NCBI GenBank assembly: GCA_965220695.1
Contig: OZ244838.1
Coordinates: 4,547,293-4,611,292 of the forward strand
Reading direction: 5' to 3'
DNA from: Vicinamibacterales bacterium
GTDB lineage: Bacteria; Acidobacteriota; Vicinamibacteria; Vicinamibacterales; UBA8438
Length of the DNA: 64,000 nucleotides
The notes beneath the pieces were generated by a model. It saw nothing but the letters and a program-made list of their open reading frames with translations. It made no database searches and was not told where the DNA came from. Both the position numbers and the translations under genes were made by a program. Shown piece after piece: positions 40,137 through 53,890 of the stretch (position 1 is its first letter; each line of letters begins with the position of its first letter).

Positions 40137-40350
40137 GGCGGCCGCCTGTATGCAGGGTTCGGCGTTCGGGCGTATGATAGGCAGGTTGTACGGTCGTGTA
40201 CTTCCCGGGTGGCAATCGACAACGAGCGCCGACTGCTGCAGGTTCCGAGTCCGACCACCGCTGAGCTTGCGGCCGCCGGGTTCTGCAGCGAATGCCGTTC
40301 GGCAATCCCCGGACCGGCATCCGACTCCCCGGCGGCGGCGTCATCTTCGC

Positions 40351-43300
40351 ATGTCCATGTTCTGCCGTGTCGCGGTGTCAATCTGTGCGTTGCTGCTGGC
40401 CGCCGTGCCAGCCGGCGCCGTCATGCGCCTGCCGTCGTCCGATGCCCTCACCCGCGGCGTCGCGGCGCAATCGGCGCCGACCGCGCAGACCTCGGAACGT
40501 GCAACCGCCGATACCGACGCGCTGCCGGACCGGACCTTCGCCGTCGTCCCGTTCACGAACACGTCGGGCGACGATACCGACAACTGGATAGGGGACGGCA
40601 TCGCGGAAACCGTGGCGGCGGACCTGACCGCCGCCGGCGGCGCGCAGATCGCCGGCCGGAGCCAGGTCGCCGCAGCGATGCAGGGCGTCGCCGGCATGGC
40701 GATCGACGCGGCAGGAGCGACGCGGCTGGGGCGCCAGTTGCGTGTCCGGTGGGTCGTGAGCGGCGGTTACCAGCGGGTCGGTCAACGATTGCGAATCACG
40801 TCGCGGCTGGTCGATAGCCGCACCGGCGAGATCGCCGGCACGTCGACGACGGACGGCGCCGTCGATGCGATATTCGATCTGCAGGATCAGATCGTCAGCG
40901 GACTGATCGACCAGGTGGCGACCGCCGTCCGGGCGCCGGAGCGGCCAGCCCCCGAGCGTGCGGGTAACCCGAACTCTGCATCGCCCGCGGCGGCGGCCAC
41001 CCGGGCGCCGGAGCGGCCCGTGCCTGCGCGTGCGGGTAACCCGAACTCTGCATCTCCCGCGGCGGCGGCCGGCTCCAGTGACGTGACGGACCTGCGCGGC
41101 GGTGGCGCCGGCCTGGGTCTCGGGCGCCCGGCTCGGTCCGCGCGGCCGCCGGAGAACGCCGTGACCGGCGGCATCGTGTTGCCCGCGGAGGTTCCCGCCC
41201 GGAACGCCGCCCGGACGCCGGAGCGGCCCGTGCCCGCGCGTGCGGGTGACCCGAGCTCCGCACCGCCCGCGGCGGCGGCCACCCGGGCGCCGGAGCGGCC
41301 CGTGCCTGCGCGTGCGGGTAACCCGAACTCTGCATCTCCCGCGGCGGCGGCGGCAGCCGGCGCGCTCGCGGGTCGGCCCATCGTCACCGCCGACTTCGCG
41401 ACCGAGCGGCCGACGGTCGATGGCGCGCTCGACGACGCCATCTGGCGAACCGCGACACGGATCACCCAGTTCGTGCAGGTCGCCCCCGTCGAGGGCGCGC
41501 CGGCGTCGGAAGACACCGAGATCTTCGTGGCGTTCGACAGCACGCATCTCTATGTCGGGATGTATGCCCACTACTCGAATCCCGGCATGATCCGGGCGAA
41601 TCGGGTCGATCGGGACCGCGCCGGCTATGGCGACGACACCATCTCGGTCTACTTCGACACGTTCCTCGACCAGCAACGCGCGTTCGTCTTCACGTTGAAC
41701 GGGTATGGCGTGCAGGGCGACTCGCTCATGGGCGGCAGCGGCGGCGGGCGGGGCGGCGGCGGCTACCGGGGCGGCGGCGGCGGCGTGCCGCGGGGCGACC
41801 GTTCCTGGGACGTCCTCTTCGACTCGGCGGGCACGCTCGTCGACGACGGCTGGACCGCCGAGCTGGCGATTCCGTTCAAGAGCCTGCGCTACCCGAGCAA
41901 CGAGGCTCACCGCTGGGGCTTCCAGATCGCCCGCTCGATCAGGGACAAGGACGAGACGGTGGTCTGGGCGCCGATCTCGCGCGACGTCTCGGGGTTCCTG
42001 CCGCAGATGGGGCTGCTCGACGGGCTTCGCAACCTGTCGACGAGTCGCAACTTCGAGATTCTGCCGACGATGACCGCCATACAGGCGGGGTCCCTCAACA
42101 GATCGACCGGCGACATGCGGGGTGTGTTCGAGGATGAACGCCAGCCGGAGGGCGGCGTCAATTTCAAATACGGCGTGACGTCGAACCTCACGCTGGACTT
42201 CACCTACAACCCCGACTTCTCGCAGATCGAGTCCGACCGGCCGCAGATCGAGGTGAACCAGCGATTCCCGCTGTTCTTCTCCGAGCTCAGACCGTTCTTT
42301 CTTGAGGGCCAGGAGGTCTTCTCCATTCGCGGGCCGGCCACGCTCATTCATACCCGCACGATTGTCGACCCGCGCTACGGCGCCAAGCTGACCGGCAAGG
42401 TCGGGAAGGCGACCATGGGGTTCCTGGTCGCCAACGACGAAGGGCCCGGCAACGTCGACGAGAAGACGGATCCGGAGGCATACCAACGCTCCGCGAGCAC
42501 CGTCATCGGCCGTGCCCGGTACGATCTGTACTCCGAGTCGCATATCGGGGCGATCTTCACCGACCGGGAGTTCCTCGACACGTACAGCCGGCTCGGCGGG
42601 GTCGATGGCCGTTTCCGTCTCACGCCGACGATATCCGCCGACTTCATGGCCATCCAGAGCACCAATCGGGACCGCAACGGCAGAGAGCGCGACGGACCGA
42701 TGTTCGACGTCGGGCTGCGCAAGAGCGGGCGGAACCTCAGCTACAGCGCGTCCTACTACTCGCTCGACCCGGACTTCGTGACCGATGTCGGTTTCGTCCG
42801 GCGCACGGGCATCCGGCGGATGAGCACCAACGCCGGCTATCGCTGGTGGCCCGAGGGATGGATTATCAGTTGGGGCCCGCAGCTCAGCTACAGCCGCAAC
42901 TGGAACTTCGACCGCGTACTCGAGGACGAGGCGTTCCGCGCGCGGCTGGATGCCAGCTTCGCCAGGAACATCCGCCTCAGCGGCGACGTGCGCCGCGAGA
43001 TGGAACGCTTCCGCGGCGTCGACTTCTTCAAGAACCGCTATGGATTCAATGTCAACGTGAGCACCAGCCGGCTCGCCTCGGTCGGGGGCAGCTACCGCTG
43101 GGGCGACGAGGTGCGATACAGCGGCACGCCGTTCGTGGGCAGCGGGTCCTCCGGCAGCCTGTTCATGTCGCTGCGTCCGCTCAGCCGCCTGCAGTCGCAG
43201 GTCAACGTCAGCACCAGCCGCCTGATCCGTCCCGACGACACCGAGTTGTTCAACGTCAAGATCTACCGGGCGCTGACCACGTTCCAGTTCACCGACCGGC

Positions 43301-43533
43301 TGCTGCTGCGGAACATCCTCGAGCACAACACGTTCAACGAGACCCTCGGGGTGAACCTGTTGCTGACCTATCGCGTGAATTCCGGGACGGTCTTCTACAT
43401 CGGCTACGACGACCGCTACAGGCAGGGCAGCCTGTTGTTCGACGACGACGACGAGCCGCTGTTCTACACGACCGACCTCGAGCGCACGAACCGGGCGTTC
43501 TTCACCAAGATTTCCTATCTGTTCAGATACTGA
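40351..43533 (+). CDS. paralogue of the preceding outer-membrane protein, with the same domain order and a repeat-containing linker
   Basis: Start at MSMFCRVAVSICALLLAAVPAGA. Contains FAVVPFTNTSGDDTDNWIGDGIAETVAADL and VDGALDDAIWRTATRITQFVQ. The C-terminus RTNRAFFTKISYLFRY is identical to the paralogue. Confidence 0.7.
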   Translation: MSMFCRVAVSICALLLAAVPAGAVMRLPSSDALTRGVAAQSAPTAQTSERATADTDALPDRTFAVVPFTNTSGDDTDNWIGDGIAETVAADLTAAGGAQIAGRSQVAAAMQGVAGMAIDAAGATRLGRQLRVRWVVSGGYQRVGQRLRITSRLVDSRTGEIAGTSTTDGAVDAIFDLQDQIVSGLIDQVATAVRAPERPAPERAGNPNSASPAAAATRAPERPVPARAGNPNSASPAAAAGSSDVTDLRGGGAGLGLGRPARSARPPENAVTGGIVLPAEVPARNAARTPERPVPARAGDPSSAPPAAAATRAPERPVPARAGNPNSASPAAAAAAGALAGRPIVTADFATERPTVDGALDDAIWRTATRITQFVQVAPVEGAPASEDTEIFVAFDSTHLYVGMYAHYSNPGMIRANRVDRDRAGYGDDTISVYFDTFLDQQRAFVFTLNGYGVQGDSLMGGSGGGRGGGGYRGGGGGVPRGDRSWDVLFDSAGTLVDDGWTAELAIPFKSLRYPSNEAHRWGFQIARSIRDKDETVVWAPISRDVSGFLPQMGLLDGLRNLSTSRNFEILPTMTAIQAGSLNRSTGDMRGVFEDERQPEGGVNFKYGVTSNLTLDFTYNPDFSQIESDRPQIEVNQRFPLFFSELRPFFLEGQEVFSIRGPATLIHTRTIVDPRYGAKLTGKVGKATMGFLVANDEGPGNVDEKTDPEAYQRSASTVIGRARYDLYSESHIGAIFTDREFLDTYSRLGGVDGRFRLTPTISADFMAIQSTNRDRNGRERDGPMFDVGLRKSGRNLSYSASYYSLDPDFVTDVGFVRRTGIRRMSTNAGYRWWPEGWIISWGPQLSYSRNWNFDRVLEDEAFRARLDASFARNIRLSGDVRREMERFRGVDFFKNRYGFNVNVSTSRLASVGGSYRWGDEVRYSGTPFVGSGSSGSLFMSLRPLSRLQSQVNVSTSRLIRPDDTELFNVKIYRALTTFQFTDRLLLRNILEHNTFNETLGVNLLLTYRVNSGTVFYIGYDDRYRQGSLLFDDDDEPLFYTTDLERTNRAFFTKISYLFRY
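40931..41356 (+). repeat. four copies of a 72-nt (24-aa) coding repeat in the linker of the second paralogue
   Basis: Units start at 40931, 41003, 41213 and 41285 and encode RAPERPVPARAGNPNSASPAAAAT. Copies 2 and 4 are identical over about 65 nt. Confidence 0.85.
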
Positions 43534-46024: not shown

Positions 46025-46086
46025 GCGGTTGCGATATCATGAATGGCCCGGGTCCGCGCCAGCGGCCCCGTCGCGCCGATCTTCCA

Positions 46087-46180
46087 GGTGAGGTGGCCGA
46101 GAGGCTGAAGGCGGCGGTTTGCTAAACCGTTGAGGGGGCTTCAACCTCCTCCCAGGGTTCGAATCCCTGCCTCACCGCCA
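46087..46180 (+). tRNA. tRNA-Ser (anticodon GCU), CCA encoded
   Basis: Acceptor GGTGAGG/CCTCACC, D-arm TGGCCGAGAGGCTGAAGGCG and anticodon stem-loop GCGGT-TTGCTAA-ACCGT, which gives anticodon GCT. A long variable arm, T-arm GGGTTCGAATCCC and 3' GCCA complete the cloverleaf. Confidence 0.9.
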
Positions 46181-47301
46181 ACTTGTTTCTGTAAGTGATT
46201 GTAAATGAAGGACTTGATTTTTTGTGCGTTAGTCTGCAACCCACAATCTGTCCCGCACTAGAGCGGAGCTTGCCGTTCGTACGGGGCCAGCGTGCTTCCC
46301 TCTGGAAGCGTGAAGGCGGAGGCGGTTGTCGTCGAAGTTACGGCCGGATTGCCGACCACATTGAACCAGGGACGGCAACGCGGGAATCGGCAACGACTGA
46401 CGTGGTAAGGCTGTTGAACCGCACGACGTACGCGCGCTTTGACCCACGACACGCGCGGCATGCCCGGACAGATCTGCTCCGACGAGGGCCCGGAGTGGGT
46501 CGCCAGGGCGGTCGCCGGTGGATCATCGCCCTCGACGCCGACAGCGCCTACAGACCACCTGCACCGAAGATCGTGCCACGGCCGGCTTCACCGGCACTCG
46601 AAAAGCGCTTGCTCGGCCACTTCAAGTATGGCTTTATCGACACCGCTCAACTAACATTCGCACCCGATGGGGCCGGTCGTGCCATTGGCACTGCGGGCCG
46701 TCAGGGATGCCAGTGCACAATTCGAGCATTCTCGATGGGCTTGCCGGCGAATCGTCAGGGGGTTGCGGCCATCGCGGCGCCCAGTCCAGCGACAAGGCGA
46801 CCGGGGCGGCGCCAGGTAGGGCGGCAGCGAAGGCGGCGCGATGCAGCGGACAACAAGAGGGTTGGACGTGATCGTGTCCTTGGTCTGTGTGCGATGAACG
46901 TTGCCGCTGGGCGGCAGATTGCAGAAATGCTCACCAGTGCGGATGTGGTGACGCTGACCGAGGCCCGCTTGCCGGCGGCGGTTGTCCTCGCGAAGATAGC
47001 CGCGATTTGCACCGAGTTGGATACGAGCGTCGAGCAGCTCGTGACGTTGTCGGAGATGGGGGTCAACACACCGGGGCAATCGTGGCGATCCTGTCGCCCC
47101 GGTCGCCGAGTGACGAGCCTAGCTCCCGAAAACGCCTTCGCCCGCGCGGTACTTCCGTTGCGTCGACTGCCGCGCGAGCTTCCCATCGGCTACCCAGGGG
47201 TTTCGGTTGCTCGCGCGCCGCAGGCGCAAGCCACACGGGACACGGCAACACACCGGACCCTCAGCATTCCGGTCGCAAAGTAGTAAATCTGGAGGTGCAC
47301 C

Positions 47302-47496
47302 ATGCCAACGCGACGAACTCTTGACAGCGGCGCGCCGTCTCAAGAGACCACCCAAGACTTGAAGAGGCCAACGATCTCCGCCAGAGACGTTGGCGTCACA
47401 CTCCGGATCAGCGACGCGACACTGAAGGAGATAGAACAGATTCAAGAGGAGAACATCAAGGCTGCGCAGGAAGACCAGAAGTTTTCTTGGCGATGA
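47302..47496 (+). CDS. small hypothetical protein upstream of the 526-aa gene
   Basis: 64-aa ORF with a strong RBS (GGAGGTG 4 nt before the ATG). It is charged and helical (ISDATLKEIEQIQEENIKAAQEDQK). No family recognised. Confidence 0.4.
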   Translation: MPTRRTLDSGAPSQETTQDLKRPTISARDVGVTLRISDATLKEIEQIQEENIKAAQEDQKFSWR

Positions 47497-47550
47497 GCTT
47501 CCGGCACGCTCGCTTCTCCCAAGGCATCTCCTCCGACTGTTGGGTCCACC

Positions 47551-49131
47551 ATGACGACACGGTACACGGTTGAGCTACTCGACCGTCCGGACGCTTGGAC
47601 GTTCTTGGCTCAAGCGCTTGGCGGCGATGGCTCTGACGTGGTACGCAATACTCTCCGACATCTCAGCATACTCGGTGTGAAGTCCTACGTTCTCGAAGAA
47701 AAGTACATCGATCGCGACTACTCAGCGGATTACTTGTACTTCTACGCCCGCACGTTCCGGGCCCACGACCGACACTGTAAGCGCGTTCACTTCTTCTCTG
47801 CCGACATATCCCGGCTGCTCCGGCGACCTCTATCAACAGACCGGCTGCGCCGAATCAAGGGTTTCGCAAGCACAACCTATTGCGGCTTTTGCGTCGTTCG
47901 TCCGTTGCCAACCGCGCCAATCGGAAGAACGGTTCTCAAGGGGCGCGTCCGCAGCGGCTTCGACATGGATGCTATCGTCACGTGCCGTGCCGACGTTGAC
48001 GTGAACCTGCTCGGCATCGACCTGCAAGTCACTGGTGCTTCCTTCCTCCAACAGGACGCCCGCGTGGGCGCGTGCGCTCAAGTTGCCATCTGGGCAGGTA
48101 TGCGGCATATGCACGCGCGGTACAAATACAATTGGGTGTCCGTTGCGGACATCACGCGATTCGCTACGCCCACAACCGAAACCGAGTCCATTTCCCTTCC
48201 CGCCGGATCGGACTTCCTCACCTCCGAGCGCATGATTCGTGGAATCAGCGAAGCGGGCTATCAGCCCCTCTGCTTTCGAGGCCGGGACATCGACCGCGCG
48301 ATCCTGCCGTACGTGGAGTCCGGCATTCCCGTCATTCTGGGCCTCAATATCGGCGGGGCCGTAGGTCACGCCGTCACCGTCATCGGCCGCGTATTCGCCA
48401 GGCAGGACACCCCGAGCGACAACGCCATCGACTACGTCCCGGCCTATATCGTCCATGACGACCAAGGTGGCCCCTATATGTGGCTTCCCATGGACGGCGG
48501 CGCTAGCCGGCGATTCTCCTTCGTCGACGATACGACGAAACGTGACACACTCGACGGCACCATCGAGTTGAACGTCCGGAGTCATGCGGTCTTTGCCGTA
48601 GCCCTCATGCCCACGAGGGTCTTCTCGACTGCGGCCGCCGCCGAGCATTCCGCATGGAACCGAATCGACTCCATCTTGCGCGGCATGGCTGGAATCCGTC
48701 AGTTGCTCGATGAGCGCGAACTCACCGTCAACGTCAGGCTCTTGGACGAACTACAGGCAGCGCATGGCGTGGGCCAAATCGTGCTACGGACGTACCTGAC
48801 GTCTGCTGCGGGCTACCGTCGCCACTTAGTCGGAGGCTCGGCTAGCAACGATCTCAAGGATGCAGTGCTCGACCTCCACTTGCCGCACTTCACATGGATC
48901 ACCGAGATTTCTACGATTGATTCGTACAACCAGGCTTCCCCGGGCTTGCGGCGCATCTACGGACATGCGGTTCTCGATGCGACCTCGACCGGCAAAGGCG
49001 GCGACGGCCTGTTGTTGCTCCATCTTCCCGGGCTTCTCGTCACCAACGACATCAATGCTCGAGAGGATCCCGAGAAGATCGCCATCATCCAGGGCGACAC
49101 GTTGTACGAGTGCCGCGAGAAACGCCTCTAG
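47551..49131 (+). CDS. 526-aa protein with a central papain-fold (peptidase C39-like / BtrH_N-like) cysteine peptidase signature; flanking domains unknown
   Basis: The ordered motifs are FLQQDARVGACAQVAIWAG (Gln...Cys), GGAVGHAVTVIGRV (His) and AYIVHDDQGGPY (Asp). I cannot assign the N-terminal ~160 aa (YIDRDYSADYLYFYARTF...CKRVHFF) or the C-terminal ~200 aa. Confidence 0.55.
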   Translation: MTTRYTVELLDRPDAWTFLAQALGGDGSDVVRNTLRHLSILGVKSYVLEEKYIDRDYSADYLYFYARTFRAHDRHCKRVHFFSADISRLLRRPLSTDRLRRIKGFASTTYCGFCVVRPLPTAPIGRTVLKGRVRSGFDMDAIVTCRADVDVNLLGIDLQVTGASFLQQDARVGACAQVAIWAGMRHMHARYKYNWVSVADITRFATPTTETESISLPAGSDFLTSERMIRGISEAGYQPLCFRGRDIDRAILPYVESGIPVILGLNIGGAVGHAVTVIGRVFARQDTPSDNAIDYVPAYIVHDDQGGPYMWLPMDGGASRRFSFVDDTTKRDTLDGTIELNVRSHAVFAVALMPTRVFSTAAAAEHSAWNRIDSILRGMAGIRQLLDERELTVNVRLLDELQAAHGVGQIVLRTYLTSAAGYRRHLVGGSASNDLKDAVLDLHLPHFTWITEISTIDSYNQASPGLRRIYGHAVLDATSTGKGGDGLLLLHLPGLLVTNDINAREDPEKIAIIQGDTLYECREKRL

Positions 49132-50577
49132 CTAGCTAGAGACCATAGCGGGTCTCGTCGGCAGCGTCCCGTTGTCAGCCATGCCTAAGTGGCTGTTCCC
49201 AATCTGGGAACACTCGACGCAGCCAGCGTCGCGCCGCGGCATGTCATAGCCGGCCTCCGCTCGACGGGAGTTCCACCGAAACCACCCAGTCTCGGCGTCG
49301 TCGTACTTCAGACCCGTCATATGGAACAGAAAATCGTCAGCGGCATGTGCGCAGGCGATAGCGTTCATGGTGACCACGCTTGGGGCCACCACACCCGGGT
49401 CGTCGACGTATGCGTATCCGCGCTTGGCCGCTTCCGGCACTGCCTCGTCCTGTAACCGTCCCGGGTTGATGAGGCCGTTACACCACAGGCACCCTTGCTC
49501 GGGTGTCACCATTCGGCTGACGCAGAAGACGTTCCCGACGGCTCCATCCTCGGCAACGGGAATCTTCGCGCCGACCTGGATCCCAGGGATCCCGTACTGA
49601 TGCACAATGGCGTTAAAGAGAAGTCGCGCCCCCATCCTGTCCGCCGCGAGGAAAAGGAAGTCACAGTCCGTGAAACTCGCCGCTACATCCTCCTCGAGGA
49701 AGTCCCTCGCCATCGCCTCGATCCGCGCGTTGCGGTTCGCACGACGAATGTTGCGGCCGGCCATCTGGACTTTGGGTCTACACAATCGGTCCGCAATGAA
49801 CTTTGGGATCCATGAAGGCACGACGGCATCGCGACGCCGAGCTGCGATGAGGCGCGGGAGGTTAGTTTCATCCGCCTGGTCCGGATCCGCGAGTACGAAT
49901 TCTCCCACGCCAAGCCGACCTAACAGTTCGGCCAGTATTGACCCCGCGCCGCCCAGTCCCACGATTCCCACGCGCGTCCGTTGCATCAGTTGCTGGCCGG
50001 CGTCGCCGAACAGACGACTCTGCCGATCGTAAATCCCGACCGCTGCAGCCTGCCTCTCCGGAATCGGGAACAGCAACTGTCGTCGATGACCGATGACCGT
50101 TGCGTGGCGAAGCGGCGCGCGGTCGCAGCCAGGAAACCACAGTTCGCCGGCCGCCGCAGAGCGCGCAAAGACCAACGCGCCGACCGGCATACCTCGCGCA
50201 ATGTCAAGAAGAGCGGGATAGCCGCGTTTGTGTGAGGCCATGTCGACTGCCGAGAACGCGACGGAGTTGGTTCCGCCATGGTTGTGAATGGCGAGGTACG
50301 CCAGCCGCTTGTCTCTCGCGCGGAGGATCCGGCTCTGGATGAACTCCGCTTTCAGCATGCGATAGCCGCGTTTACCCGGCACGTAGTCCACACCGTCCAT
50401 CGCCAGATGGACCTCCCTCGCGACGAGCCTCAGGCCGCGGTCGGACTCGCAAGTGCCGGCAAGGATTACCGCACCGTGCTCGTCGTCATCCCCGGGAAAT
50501 AGGTGGGTCTGGAGTTCAGCGTACAGTCCTGCGGGGATCGTCAGTCTCCAGGATTTCACGTTGGCCTCTTCATCCAT
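49132..50577 (-). CDS. JAB/JAMM metallopeptidase fused to a ThiF/E1-like adenylating enzyme
   Basis: The N-terminus carries E33-HG ... H98-N-H100 ... S109-x-x-D112, which is JAMM-like. The C-terminus has YDRQSRLFG, the Rossmann VGIVGLGGAGSILAELLGRLGVGEFVLADPDQADETNLPR, and two CxxC pairs (CLWC, CVEC) as in MoeB/ThiF/E1. GTG 50559 is an alternative start (GTGA overlap with the E2 stop). Confidence 0.8.
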   Translation of the reverse strand: MDEEANVKSWRLTIPAGLYAELQTHLFPGDDDEHGAVILAGTCESDRGLRLVAREVHLAMDGVDYVPGKRGYRMLKAEFIQSRILRARDKRLAYLAIHNHGGTNSVAFSAVDMASHKRGYPALLDIARGMPVGALVFARSAAAGELWFPGCDRAPLRHATVIGHRRQLLFPIPERQAAAVGIYDRQSRLFGDAGQQLMQRTRVGIVGLGGAGSILAELLGRLGVGEFVLADPDQADETNLPRLIAARRRDAVVPSWIPKFIADRLCRPKVQMAGRNIRRANRNARIEAMARDFLEEDVAASFTDCDFLFLAADRMGARLLFNAIVHQYGIPGIQVGAKIPVAEDGAVGNVFCVSRMVTPEQGCLWCNGLINPGRLQDEAVPEAAKRGYAYVDDPGVVAPSVVTMNAIACAHAADDFLFHMTGLKYDDAETGWFRWNSRRAEAGYDMPRRDAGCVECSQIGNSHLGMADNGTLPTRPAMVSS

Positions 50578-50948
50578 CGGATGACCTTCAGCAACTTCAG
50601 CGCCGCGGTGTCGGTCTCGGGGTTCAGCCTGTTCGATCGGCGCGAGATCTGGATAACCGGCTGGCCTCGAAACGTTGCGGTCCCGAAGCCGCCTCCCAGA
50701 CCGGCGCCGTCGGACCGCGCTAGGTCCGGATTCGTGAAGTGCGGATAGACGTCAGCGTAGGGGTACTGGAACGTGATCTGGAAGCCAATCCAGACCTGAG
50801 CCTGCACGTAGGGGGAACCCATGGGAATGTCCCTCACCATGACGATTGCCCCGCCGGTGCCGTCCGGTTCCGTCTCGACGGCACACGAATCGATCGTGCG
50901 ACGGATTTCCTCGATTGCCGTGGCCACTCCGGGGACGATCGTGCTCAT
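50556..50948 (-). CDS. E2/UBC-like protein (prokaryotic E2 family)
   Basis: 130 aa. WIGFQITFQYPYADVYPHF resembles the UBC core (F.i.i.FP..YP...P...F...HPN). Its operon position is between the Ubl gene and the E1 gene. Confidence 0.55.
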   Translation of the reverse strand: MSTIVPGVATAIEEIRRTIDSCAVETEPDGTGGAIVMVRDIPMGSPYVQAQVWIGFQITFQYPYADVYPHFTNPDLARSDGAGLGGGFGTATFRGQPVIQISRRSNRLNPETDTAALKLLKVIRWMKRPT

Positions 50949-51214
50949 GAGTTGTCGTCATTCTCGATCGCGAGGAACCGGTCGTTGGGATGTACCTCGA
51001 TGAACTGGTCGTCGCCGATCAGATTCGTCTTCCCGCCGCCGAGCTCGATGCTCAGCACGAAGTCCTGCTTGATGTTCACGCCTTGCTCGATTGCCACCTT
51101 CTTGATGTTCTCGCCCGTCTGCTTTGACCCGTCGAGCACCACCGGCTTGTCGTTCAACGTGATTTCGACCTTCCCGTCGTCGATCCCGCCCTTCACGTGT
51201 TCATCGCCTGACAT
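50945..51214 (-). CDS. single-domain ubiquitin-like beta-grasp protein (multiubiquitin-type)
   Basis: 89 aa. KVEITLNDKPVVLDGSKQTGENIKKVAIEQGV...DFVLSIEL....NLIGDDQFIEVHPNDRFLAIE follows the beta-grasp pattern of the prokaryotic multiubiquitin family. RBS AAGAGGTG is present and there is an ATGA overlap with the E2 gene. Confidence 0.55.
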   Translation of the reverse strand: MSGDEHVKGGIDDGKVEITLNDKPVVLDGSKQTGENIKKVAIEQGVNIKQDFVLSIELGGGKTNLIGDDQFIEVHPNDRFLAIENDDNS

Positions 51215-51287
51215 GTCTGCACCTCTTTCAATGTGGACTCAGGATTGCTATAATGCAACATACTGCATGTGACCATGGATTGCAAGA
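51215..51287. promoter_or_regulatory. divergent promoter/operator region between the Ubl operon and the XRE regulator
   Basis: A perfect TATAAT lies at 51249-51254. There is a direct repeat GGATTGC at 51242-51248 and 51277-51283, and an inverted repeat ATGCA-N7-TGCAT at 51253-51269. Confidence 0.4.
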
Positions 51288-51665
51288 ATGAAATTACGAG
51301 AAAAACGCACAGACCGCTTCGACGTCGTCGCGCTGCATGCCGCACTGGACTCCGAACGCCGTTCGCGCCGCATCGCCTGGAAGGATGTGGCGGCGCAGTC
51401 GAACGTGAGCGCATCGACGCTCACCCGTCTGTCCCAGGGCCGTCAACCCGACGTCAACAGCCTCGCAGCTCTCACTGCCTGGCTCGGGATGTCAGCAGAC
51501 CACTTCATGCGCACCGAGACCATTGACCAATTCGGCGCAGCAAGCCCGCTTGCCCAGATCTCCTCCATCATCCATCAAGATCCCAAACTGAATCCCGAGG
51601 GGGCGGTTGCCCTCGAGGAGTTGATCCGGGCCACGTATGCGCGCCTGAGAACCGACAGCGACTGA
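51288..51665 (+). CDS. XRE/Cro-C1-type helix-turn-helix transcriptional regulator
   Basis: IAWKDVAAQSNVSASTLTRLSQGRQPDVNSLAALTAWLGMSADHF is a typical HTH_XRE. It also has a ~45-aa C-terminal extension. Confidence 0.8.
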   Translation: MKLREKRTDRFDVVALHAALDSERRSRRIAWKDVAAQSNVSASTLTRLSQGRQPDVNSLAALTAWLGMSADHFMRTETIDQFGAASPLAQISSIIHQDPKLNPEGAVALEELIRATYARLRTDSD

Positions 51666-52225
51666 GACTACCGACTGCGCCTTCGCCTCGCCCGAGTTAA
51701 CTCGTCTCGGACCCTCGCGTTCCTCGTTCGAGGCTCGCAGCCCTGCATTGTGTAGACCGCCTGGCCGTTGGCGTCGACGTGCGCGAACGTCGGCGGACCG
51801 TCAACGGCGAAGGTAAGGTGCACAATGCTCGAGACGCGCGCGGCGCGCCCTTCCGCATCTTTGCGACACCGGTTGAGACGAGCGTGAAGTGGAGGATAGC
51901 TCGTCAAGGAACTCCCCGACTCTGCAGCGTCGTCGTTTCACGCCATCGTCATGCCTCAGTGCGCCGCGCCGGACTGTGATTCGAACGGATGGACTCGATC
52001 CGACACCAAAATCCGAAGTCTTCATTTGCTGCGAAATCCCACGGTCGTCCAGGCAAACGAATCCCACGACGACGGGAAGTCGCAAGCAAGAGCGACGGTG
52101 ACGCGCTGTCCCGTGGCGACGTCTCGACTTGGAAGGCTGCCCCGAGTGCCGGTCGTCGAGGCGCACCGCCGGGGACCACACAGTGACTGACGGACCTCAG
52201 ACCTCAGTGCATCGGCACGGTCCTC

Positions 52226-53488
52226 TCAGGGCCAGCGCACCGAGACGGTGCCGTCGTCGTTGCTGACGAGGATGTCGAACGCGCGCAGCGTTCGCAGCCA
52301 GCGGGGCGCGTTGCGCTTGACGAGGATCGCTTCGTAGTCGGTGGCCGGATCGCGGTAGGGGGTGCCATCACGGAGGACGGCGAAGGCGCAGCGTGCGAGC
52401 TTGTGCGCGGTGGCGACGATGGCACGCTTGTAACCGCGGCGCACGGTGAGCGCCTTGTGGTGCGCCTGGAATTGGCAATTCTTGGTGCGCGCGGCGGCAT
52501 GGGCGCACTCGACGAGCACGGCGCGCAGCGTGCGGCTGCCCCGGCGGGTGCGCCCGGTGCGGCGCTTGCCTGCGCTCTCGTTGTTGCCGGGACACAGACC
52601 GGCCCACGCGGCGAGGCGACTGGCAGCACCGAACACGCTCGGGTCGGGACCCATCTCACTCAGGATGGCGCAGGCCGAGGTGTGGTCGATGCCGGGGATG
52701 GTCTCCAGCAGGCGGCACTGCCTGGTGTAGTCCGTGAGGGCGGTGTCGATGTGCCGGTCGAAGTCCTGCACGCGCCGGTCGAGGTCGTCGTGTCCGGCGA
52801 TGAGGTCGGTGAGCAGGAGGCGATCGGTTTCGCACAAGGTCAGGCGCAGGGCATCGCCGAGGAGTTCCAGGCGGGTGCGGACGTGCCCGCTGAGCGAGTC
52901 CAGGATGTCCGTGCGGGGCCGTCGGGCGACCAGGCCGTCGAGGATGCGCCGGCCATTGAGGCCGAAGATGTCGCTGAGCACGCCTCCGATGCGGATGCCG
53001 CTCCGGTCGAGGACCTTCTGCACCCGGTTGCGCACCTGGCTGCGCTGCCCGACCAGCGTGCGCCGATGGCGAACCAGATTCCGCAGGTCGCAAAACGCCT
53101 CGTCGGGCACGAAACTGGGACGTCCGAGCCCGAACTGGCACACCCGGGCCAACCAGCGGCTGTCTGCGATGTCGGTCTTGCGGCCGCGCAGTTGCCGCAC
53201 GTGCTGCGCGTGCAGCAATTGCGCCTCGATGCCGGCCGCGGTGAGTGCGCGCCACGGCGCCTGCCAGTAGACGCCGGTCCCCTCCAGGGCCGCCGCCTCG
53301 ACGCGATGGCCGGTCAGCCAGGCGGCCAAGGCGTCCAGGCCGCTTGCCAGCGCACTGAAGGTGCGTGTCTCGCAGGTCGGCTCACTGCCGGGCGCTGCAC
53401 AGAGCCGCACCGTGGCTGTGATCGCCATTTTGTGCACATCGAGTCCCGCGGCGCGGGGATGGACAACGTGCAGGTCATCGTTCATCAT
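52226..53488 (-). CDS. IS110-family transposase
   Basis: Start at MMNDDLHVVHPRAAGLDVHKMAI after AGGAGG. The DEDD N-domain and the C-terminal LLETIPGIDHTSACAILSEMGPD...F........AWAGLCPGNNESAGKR block are present. Confidence 0.9.
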   Translation of the reverse strand: MMNDDLHVVHPRAAGLDVHKMAITATVRLCAAPGSEPTCETRTFSALASGLDALAAWLTGHRVEAAALEGTGVYWQAPWRALTAAGIEAQLLHAQHVRQLRGRKTDIADSRWLARVCQFGLGRPSFVPDEAFCDLRNLVRHRRTLVGQRSQVRNRVQKVLDRSGIRIGGVLSDIFGLNGRRILDGLVARRPRTDILDSLSGHVRTRLELLGDALRLTLCETDRLLLTDLIAGHDDLDRRVQDFDRHIDTALTDYTRQCRLLETIPGIDHTSACAILSEMGPDPSVFGAASRLAAWAGLCPGNNESAGKRRTGRTRRGSRTLRAVLVECAHAAARTKNCQFQAHHKALTVRRGYKRAIVATAHKLARCAFAVLRDGTPYRDPATDYEAILVKRNAPRWLRTLRAFDILVSNDDGTVSVRWP

Positions 53489-53890
53489 CGGTTCGCCTCC
53501 TGTAGGGGTACGGGGGGTGGTGGAAGCGGGGCGATCGGTCGGACGGAGAACTCGCGCCCCGAGGGCGCGGTGCACTTTGCTGCACGTCCACGGCGTGAGG
53601 CCGGGCACATTGCGGGGCTCGACGCCGACCGACCAGGTCAGTTTAGCGTCGGGGAACGTCCACCATTCGAAATAACGACCACTGTCCCGCCTCCGCCGCT
53701 ATTGTGCATCGGCCCCCGATGGAACGGCACGGAGACGCTAGCCGAACCGGTCGCCCGTCTCGCCCATTTCATGGCTTCGGGGTGGTGAGGTGGGACCGAC
53801 CATGACGGTTTAGCGGGTAGAGTTCGATGGTCGCGTGAGATCCAATTTTTTGAACCTGTACTTTTCTAGGGGATCTGGCATAACTGTGGG

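Follow-up and report, generated by a model that had tools for sequence, protein, structure and literature searches.

A widespread pair of a small protein and a predicted papain-like cysteine peptidase, joined to a Bub-like conjugation operon in a Vicinamibacterales genome

What does a predicted cysteine peptidase do beside a bacterial ubiquitin-like conjugation operon, and does it depend on that operon at all? The question is raised by a stretch of 64,000 nucleotides from a Vicinamibacterales bacterium (the window, meaning throughout the whole stretch that was analysed), in which a 526-residue protein, here called the protease, is encoded next to genes for a ubiquitin-like protein (Ubl), an E2-like protein and a JAB peptidase fused to an E1 (Table 1). 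The original prediction, made from the letters of the window, recognized in the protease the ordered Gln, Cys, His and Asp of papain-like or C39-like peptidases, set between two domains that it could not assign, and it proposed that the protein might be a deconjugase, a Ubl-maturing protease, a target or sensor, or the effector of the system. We find that the protease is one half of a module, consisting of a partner protein of ~60 residues and a predicted cysteine peptidase of ~530 residues, that is widespread and absent from all libraries searched. The pair persists without Ubl genes, has been joined repeatedly to Bub-type operons and, in the window, has been co-transferred with one.

The open reading frame (ORF) of the protease was confirmed from its ATG start through all 526 codons, and the motifs behind the peptidase assignment are all present in its translation, namely FLQQDARVGACAQVAIWAG (residues 165-183), GGAVGHAVTVIGRV (268-281) and AYIVHDDQGGPY (298-309), as are the N-terminal motifs YIDRDYSADY...HFF (52-82) and YCGFCVVRPL... 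(110-129). Judged directly from the translation, the protein has neither a signal peptide nor a transmembrane stretch. An alignment of 57 relatives at 25-56% identity contains nine invariant columns (R78, Q168, C175, S257, H273, G279, D304, G307, and D476), and a second alignment of 75 sequences returned the same invariant core together with Q167, D169, and D303, so that the putative catalytic residues Q168, C175, H273, and D304 are invariant in both. A first AlphaFold2 run, which used close homologues only, gave a predicted local distance difference test (pLDDT) score of 64.5 and was superseded by a run on a diverse alignment, with a pLDDT of 90.8, a predicted template modelling (pTM) score of 0.91, and no segment below 50. 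In this model Cys175 starts the helix 175-191, His273 lies within the strand 270-283, and Asp303/Asp304 stand at the end of the strand 298-303, which in the model is the papain arrangement; the alpha+beta active-site fold that a papain-like enzyme calls for is thus present in the predicted structure. Comparison of the model with the PDB by Foldseek matched ~195 central columns and nothing outside the centre. The matches include staphopain (1cv8, E 4e-5), the C39 domain of ComA (3k8u, template modelling (TM) score 0.72, target-normalised), PCAT1, LahT150, AvrRpt2, PeiR, UfSP, and cathepsin L, with a Foldseek probability of 1.0 for staphopain, ComA, PCAT1, and cathepsin L. The Pfam family Peptidase_C39_2 matches three of the 57 relatives weakly (best E 0.002), and a distant 726-residue homologue encoded on a plasmid passes its cut-off (24.7 bits against 24). 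Residue invariance, the core matches of a high-confidence model, and this distant family member all back the original papain/C39-like assignment, and by sequence and model the protease is a predicted papain-like cysteine peptidase with Gln168 as the oxyanion residue, Cys175 as the nucleophile, and His273 and Asp304 completing the catalytic set.

The two flanking domains were rightly left unassigned, as neither has a PDB or BFVD fold match or a Pfam match; the BFVD search returned papain-like lysin domains only and no full-length relative. Conserved in at least 90% of the sequences within the N-terminal block are E49, Y52, D54, D56, Y65, F69, R78, H80, F81, F82, Y110, G112, R117, and P118, and the block is retained in the 726-residue homologue, which is encoded on a Pseudomonas plasmid. 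The C-terminal ~200 residues had been described as helical, and this has to be corrected: in the model they form an alpha/beta domain, in which three helices (361-406) are followed by a helix-flanked beta-sheet.

How large is the family to which this protein belongs? Searches of Pfam, NCBIfam, PADLOC, and the PDB sequences gave no match to the protease, and the family profile returned only noise against the PDB. A word-indexed search with the protease found 495 clusters, the best 120 of which are all ~526 residues long and 66-91% identical, and with an exhaustive HMMER scan the number rose to 3,667 cluster representatives (50% identity) at E <= 1e-3, 2,747 of them at E <= 1e-10. The family thus comprises thousands of sequence clusters spread over at least eight phyla, has two flanking domains without assignment, and is without annotation in the libraries searched; its members carry only the name "hypothetical protein" in public sources, and literature searches gave no paper on it. 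A phage origin was rejected because neither the IMG/VR viral contigs nor the INPHARED phage genomes contain relatives. One protein of 1022 residues (P0133), in which fn3 and cadherin-like domains precede part of the core and the Cys region is missing, has the look of a chimera or pseudogene and was excluded.

The original prediction overlooked a second, smaller ORF, and this one alters the picture. It ends 54 nucleotides upstream of the protease gene, and gene callers also find it in other genomes, including loci L001-L004 (L-numbers denote the loci of our sample). A profile made from two partner peptides, which takes a same-strand ORF ending 9-80 nucleotides before the protease gene, places a partner upstream of the protease in 83 of 85 loci and in 114 of 116 dereplicated loci, so the real unit is a two-gene pair. 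The N-terminus of the partner is variable and polar. Its C-terminal ~35 residues are conserved (...VGVTLRISDATLKEIEQIQEENIKAAQEDQKFSWR), and in them a short hydrophobic strand is followed by an amphipathic helix and then a tail. The motif of this region reads ...ISDxxLKEhDxIQEExIKAAQxxQKFSWR in the window clade and ...S-x-E-x3-I-x2-I-[DE]-x3-I-R-x-A-E-Q-x2-G-x-[FL]-x-[VLM]-G at most other loci, and it persists down to ~30% protease identity, with Arg or Lys as the last residue in 62 loci and Gly, Ala, or Ser in 46. Differences among 39 close pairs fall on codon positions 1, 2, and 3 in the numbers 448/293/846, a pattern showing that the conservation is protein-coding. A gene of 52-57 residues, diverged in sequence, also lies directly upstream of the plasmid-borne homologues of the protease in Shewanella, Pseudomonas, and Hymenobacter (27-29% identity). 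This distant branch consists of L168 (Shewanella baltica pS19501), L169 (P. aeruginosa plasmid p4782_002), and L170 (Hymenobacter plasmid), whose large proteins retain the N-terminal block and the Q/C/H/DD residues; on two of the three plasmids that protein is ~720 residues long and has a different, longer C-terminal region. A likeness of the partner to Pup (64 residues, acidic helix) was considered and dropped, since there is no Pup-ligase homology and the partner has no Pfam match.

The pair does not depend on Ubl genes for its persistence. The window clade and one central family member were the seeds of our sample, whose proportions are therefore no census. Within it, 57 of 116 dereplicated full-length loci have an E1 beside the pair, 41 have no E1 over at least 2.5 kb to either side, and 18 have flanks too short to tell, leaving 98 resolvable loci. 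The concern that homologues might occur mostly without Ubl machinery is therefore borne out in part, with at least 41 of the 98 resolvable loci lacking an E1. This makes it unlikely that the family in general serves only to mature or deconjugate Ubl; of the roles first proposed, effector or sensor fits best. In a neighbour-joining tree one large clade carries the window-type block with sporadic loss of the Ubl operon, as in L011, L027, L036, and L037, where the operon has decayed and the pair is kept. Most members of the other deep branch stand alone, including examples with Pfam-annotated neighbours.

The association with Ubl machinery is also real and recurrent, as Bub-type genes stand beside the pair in separate clades and in differing orders, giving five layouts of which two retain BubE, the DUF6527 protein of Bub operons. 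In the first, the window type, the Ubl, E2-like, and JAB-E1 genes are convergent with the pair. The second, of Sphingopyxis and Caulobacter, is likewise convergent and has separate E1, JAB, and E2 genes and a triple Ubl ending in GGSS; at the Caulobacter locus (L171) these genes are flanked by an integrase and by a helix-turn-helix (HTH) and Peptidase_M78 pair like CapH/CapP. The third, at L104 and L132, has an HTH gene beside a co-directional Ubl-E2-JAB-E1-partner-protease run. The fourth, at L108, is a complete canonical Type I operon, with a fusion of two Multi_ubiq domains to Prok-E2_E (E 1e-45), a Prok-JAB and ThiF fusion, and DUF6527 (E 1.5e-22). The fifth, on a Pseudomonas aeruginosa plasmid, has ImmA/IrrE and HTH genes beside genes for multiubiquitin, ThiF, DUF6527, a 55-residue protein, and the 726-residue homologue, an arrangement like that of a Type II Bub operon with the pair behind it. 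Further afield, the pair stands in surroundings of a kind usual for conflict systems: it is found as Tn7-like cargo beside a BrxR/WYL regulator and on a plasmid with a caspase-family protein and a helicase; putative integrases lie near it, and beside L051 there are large ORFs like those of type I restriction-modification systems (from raw ORF translations only). Its layout is like that of a type II toxin-antitoxin module, with a small upstream gene and a larger enzyme gene that are co-inherited on mobile DNA.

In the window the pair belongs to a block of six genes. The block is 65-88% identical in nucleotide sequence to ~45 loci by blastn, with unrelated flanks at all of them except L008, and its carriers include Acidobacteriota, Gemmatimonadota, Rhodothermales, Chloroflexota, Alpha- and Gammaproteobacteria, Binatia, Nitrospirota, and Thermodesulfobacteriota. 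A conserved block within unrelated flanks across phyla indicates horizontal movement as one piece. Many carriers of the window-type block (L005-L049) have metagenome-assembled genome names that indicate sponge or coral hosts (Palauibacter poriticola, Poriferihabitaceae, SB06xx, and COS1 bins), which suggests, from these names only, that the block is exchanged within a shared host-associated community. At L008 (Vicinamibacterales chromosome OZ253576.1) the flanks of the window recur at 93% identity, and the IS110-family element that lies just past the block in the window is missing from this syntenic locus, so the element is a recent insertion. On the other side, the ~1.2 kb from an M24 peptidase gene to the block (46025-47290) holds only implausible Arg-rich ORFs without a Pfam match, and short similar stretches of its part 46546-46841 occur in L006-L008 only; the region may be non-coding or may be left over from the insertion site.

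Based on these findings we put forward a hypothetical mechanism, to which we assign a probability of roughly 0.45, in which the pair is a cytoplasmic cysteine-protease effector held by its partner, forming a self-contained conflict module that has become coupled to Bub conjugation. The conserved strand, helix, and tail at the C-terminus of the partner would dock on the peptidase and keep it inactive or directed, so that the partner would act like a trans-acting propeptide, an inhibitor, or an antitoxin. A trigger would then remove the partner, and the freed protease would cut proteins of the cell or of an invader, which would make the module an effector of conflict (defence or addiction) on mobile DNA. 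In the window, the Bub-like conjugation machinery would most likely control the module or be read out through it, and trimming Ubl conjugates may have become a further task of the protease. The order of the genes with the small one first, the combination of a variable N-terminus with a putative docking C-terminus, and the mobility of the pair all fit an inhibitor or antitoxin, and the structures of staphopain with staphostatin and of a papain-like toxin with its immunity protein may serve as precedent by analogy. It should be noted that several points weigh against this mechanism. No PADLOC defence model matches the protease, and phage protection has yet to be demonstrated for any Bub operon. 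Most type II antitoxins have a DNA-binding domain, which the partner lacks, and the partner could be a substrate of the protease instead of inhibiting it. The covariation of its last residue with columns of the protease is noisy and confounded by phylogeny, and the seeded, biased sampling of loci makes the stand-alone fraction only a lower bound within the sample.

The neighbouring operon named in the original prediction is present; it lies on the opposite strand and is convergent with the protease gene. The best PDB sequence match of the JAB-E1 protein is Citrobacter BubCD (9ea4, E 7.8e-23, residues 11-418, by phmmer), and its sequence contains the JAMM-like motif H-N-H-x8-S-A-V-D. The conserved residues of the E2-like protein are D66, H70, and S102-R103. 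In an alignment with the Prok-E2_E domain in the Ubl-E2 fusion of L108, a canonical BubAB fusion, its S102 corresponds to the catalytic-type Ser of the S-R-H motif there. Arg replaces the His of the S-x-H motif, and another conserved His is H70, in YPHF. The tail of the window-type Ubl is invariant (...AI[EP]NDDNS) and lacks a Gly at its end or close to it, in which it departs from BubA, BilA, and ubiquitin as the literature describes them. Other Ubl tails read ...PNDDHS in the co-directional type and ...HVRQGGSS in the Sphingopyxis type. The HTH gene is the last of the block and holds the same position in most loci. There is no spacer between the convergent genes, as the stop of the protease gene ends at 49131 and that of JAB-E1 on the minus strand occupies 49132-49134; at other loci the two ends overlap by a few to ~30 nucleotides (for example, 9577-9587 in L001). 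Convergence with no terminator between the two genes suggests colliding or antisense transcription; counts in a promoter and terminator scan were at chance level. DUF6527 was not found in the block, the flanking ORFs, or the whole window, L108 (E 1.5e-22) serving as the positive control. Iyer et al. (2006) described a "6e" operon in which a Cys-less E2/RWD protein is sometimes a separate gene between Ubl and JAB-E1. The window operon is of this type, now termed Type I Bub, but without BubE; judged by sequence it is related to Type I Bub, yet it stands outside that type by lacking DUF6527.

The first alternative is a dedicated Ubl protease that matures the Ubl, or removes it from targets, in place of the missing BubE. 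Papain folds are the commonest deubiquitinases, and UfSP and Josephin are among the weaker fold matches of the core. L108 is the only one of the 57 Bub-linked dereplicated loci with DUF6527, and the cleavage of Ubl-target conjugates by BubE (Ye et al. 2024, bioRxiv 10.1101/2024.11.21.623953) is left vacant in the window block. The Ubl tails (NDDNS, NDDHS, GGSS) show strict conservation and continue beyond any Gly that they contain, and the idea is most attractive for the window clade, where BubE is absent and the NDDNS tail has no exposed Gly. However, the many homologues with no Ubl, E1, or E2 nearby would have no substrate, a JAB domain able to process the Ubl is already there, and the obligatory partner is left unexplained. 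Simple replacement of BubE by the pair is weakened by L108 and the Pseudomonas plasmid, where both occur together. We regard a dedicated Ubl protease as unlikely overall.

Doubtful as well, in our estimation, is a tighter form of coupling in which the pair is the missing output of Bub, the E1 and E2 conjugating the Ubl to the partner or to the protease and thereby releasing or activating the protease effector. The last 40 residues of the partner contain 3.5 Lys in Bub-linked loci and 1.7 in stand-alone ones, which is a weak hint that the Ubl might be placed on the partner, and Bub-linked proteases are themselves poorer in lysine than stand-alone ones. The difference comes mostly from one clade.

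Alternatively, the partner may be a substrate or cargo, either cleaved or transferred by transpeptidation, much as C39 domains act on double-glycine leaders, to yield a peptide signal or a Pup-like tag. The closest folds of the core include the leader-peptide peptidases ComA, PCAT1, and LahT150 (leader-bound), and the amphipathic S-x3-L-x2-I helix of the partner is similar to the double-glycine leader consensus, LSxxELxxIxGG. The last residue of the partner is limited to the two classes given above, and a Gln is conserved in its A-[AE]-Q motif. Set against this, the partner ends with its conserved part and nothing follows, which leaves no scissile bond where a leader would meet its core, and the loci contain no exporter or modification enzymes. 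In addition, a free carboxylate cannot acylate Cys without activation by ATP, and most loci have no E1. We therefore hold a substrate or cargo role to be improbable.

Finally, it is very improbable that the Ubl genes are neighbours by accident or that the protease is a housekeeping enzyme or inactive scaffold with no role in conflict: the window genes do lie on opposite strands, many homologues have no Ubl genes, and the defence-system libraries gave no match, but the six genes have been inherited together across phyla, within unrelated flanks and at 65-88% nucleotide identity, five gene orders exist that include single co-directional operons, the catalytic residues are invariant, and the sporadic distribution is tied to mobile elements.

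The features of the window are collected in Table 1. Farther upstream, the linker of the second tandem paralog (40150-43533) has several copies of a Pro/Ala-rich unit (…APERPVPARAGNPNSASPAAAA…).

Table 1. Features of the window, in window coordinates, with the evidence for each.
Feature	Coordinates	Strand	Evidence or remark
Two tandem paralogous proteins of ~1,000-1,100 residues	37056-40136, 40150-43533	+	TolB_N/FlgO-like N-terminus, CBM9, DUF5916
Six-gene block, 4.4 kb (pair, Ubl/E2-like/JAB-E1 operon, HTH gene)	47290-51690	.	blastn
Small partner gene, 64 residues	47302-47496	+	GGAGGTG ribosome-binding site upstream; profile detection
Protease gene, 526 residues	47551-49131	+	ATG start; predicted three-domain cytoplasmic clan-CA cysteine peptidase
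N-terminal alpha/beta domain (residues 1 to ~146)	47551-47988	+	E-x2-Y-x-D-R-D-[YF]-S ... R-x-H-F-F ... Y-x-G-F-x-V-x-R-P block
Predicted papain-like catalytic core (residues ~147-353)	47989-48609	+	Invariant columns, Foldseek matches
Putative catalytic codons	Gln168 48052-48054; Cys175 48073-48075; His273 48367-48369; Asp303/Asp304 48457-48462	+	Positions verified
C-terminal alpha/beta domain (residues 355-526)	48613-49128	+	Conserved R413-T-Y-L-T, P445, W449, E452, H472, D476-A-T, P493-G
JAB peptidase-E1 (ThiF) fusion, related to BubCD	49132-50577	-	Pfam ThiF E 1.5e-29
E2/RWD-like protein, 130 residues, no conserved Cys	50556-50948	-	Weak Prok-E2_E, E 0.004, below curated cut-off
Single beta-grasp Ubl, 89 residues	50945-51214	-	Pfam Multi_ubiq E 2.4e-5, above cut-off
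XRE-type HTH protein, 125 residues, divergent from Ubl operon	51288-51665	+	Weak HTH_31/HTH_26 matches
IS110-family element just past the HTH gene	~52016-53807; transposase ORF 52226-53608	-	DEDD_Tnp_IS110 and Transposase_20

The targets and biological role of Bub operons are unsettled in the literature, and the pair is a candidate effector, regulated target, or deconjugase of such operons. The published Bub catalogue was built from operons that contain DUF6527, and BubE-less blocks such as that of the window were thus probably not captured. Literature searches returned no paper describing the pair, and the main text of the first Bub preprint describes neither the pair nor any extra neighbouring or effector genes; a second Bub paper was not systematically searched. 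If the pair is the output of Bub, it would be a bacterial counterpart of the ubiquitin-triggered removal of an inhibitor, and the stand-alone pair would be a new and very widespread protease-based defence or addiction system.

How, then, does the module compare with known systems? The C39 peptidase domains of ComA, PCAT1, and LahT share with the protease a papain-like core and the ordered Gln, Cys at a helix N-terminus, His, and Asp, and they are among its best structural matches (TM up to 0.72, target-normalised). In contrast to them, the protease is not fused to an ABC transporter and has no ABC exporter conserved nearby, it has ~330 extra residues in two flanking domains, the window protein itself has no Pfam match, and the partner, unlike a C39 leader, has no Gly-Gly followed by a core peptide. 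By fold and predicted catalytic residues the protease belongs in clan CA, and by sequence and architecture it falls outside C39. Staphopain with staphostatin, and papain-like toxins with their immunity proteins, are like the pair in that a clan-CA protease is encoded beside a dedicated small protein; the complexes 1pxv, 1y4h, and 9l5u are in the Foldseek match list of the protease, with staphopain as the top match. Staphostatins are beta-barrels of ~110 residues encoded downstream of a secreted protease, whereas the partner has ~60 residues, is largely helical or disordered, is encoded upstream, and shares no sequence similarity with them, and the protease is predicted to be cytoplasmic.

Type II CBASS (cyclic oligonucleotide-based antiphage signalling system), with its accessory Cap2 (E1/E2) and Cap3 (JAB), offers an analogy for the way in which a self-sufficient core may stand alone in many genomes and be joined by E1, E2, and JAB in a subset. 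The core of the module differs in being a protease and a small protein and not a nucleotide cyclase and an effector, and the window differs in having a separate Ubl. A further comparison is with Type I Bub (6E.1: BubAB, BubCD, and BubE; Ye et al. 2024). The Bub (6E) operons are biochemically unusual in forming oxyester intermediates, and all are stated to carry DUF6527. The window operon shares with Type I Bub the JAB-E1 fusion with BubCD as its best PDB match, a Multi_ubiq Ubl, a Cys-less Prok-E2_E-like E2 with a conserved Ser, and a flanking HTH regulator, and at L108 the pair stands beside a complete BubAB/BubCD/BubE operon. It differs in having no BubE, in encoding Ubl and E2 as separate genes, in a Ubl that ends in NDDNS and not in Gly, in the Arg that takes the place of the S-x-H His, and in the two extra genes of the pair. 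Hence, as far as sequence comparison can tell, the protease founds a new family of clan CA, in a two-gene module that is itself new, and the window holds a Bub-like block without BubE that carries this module.

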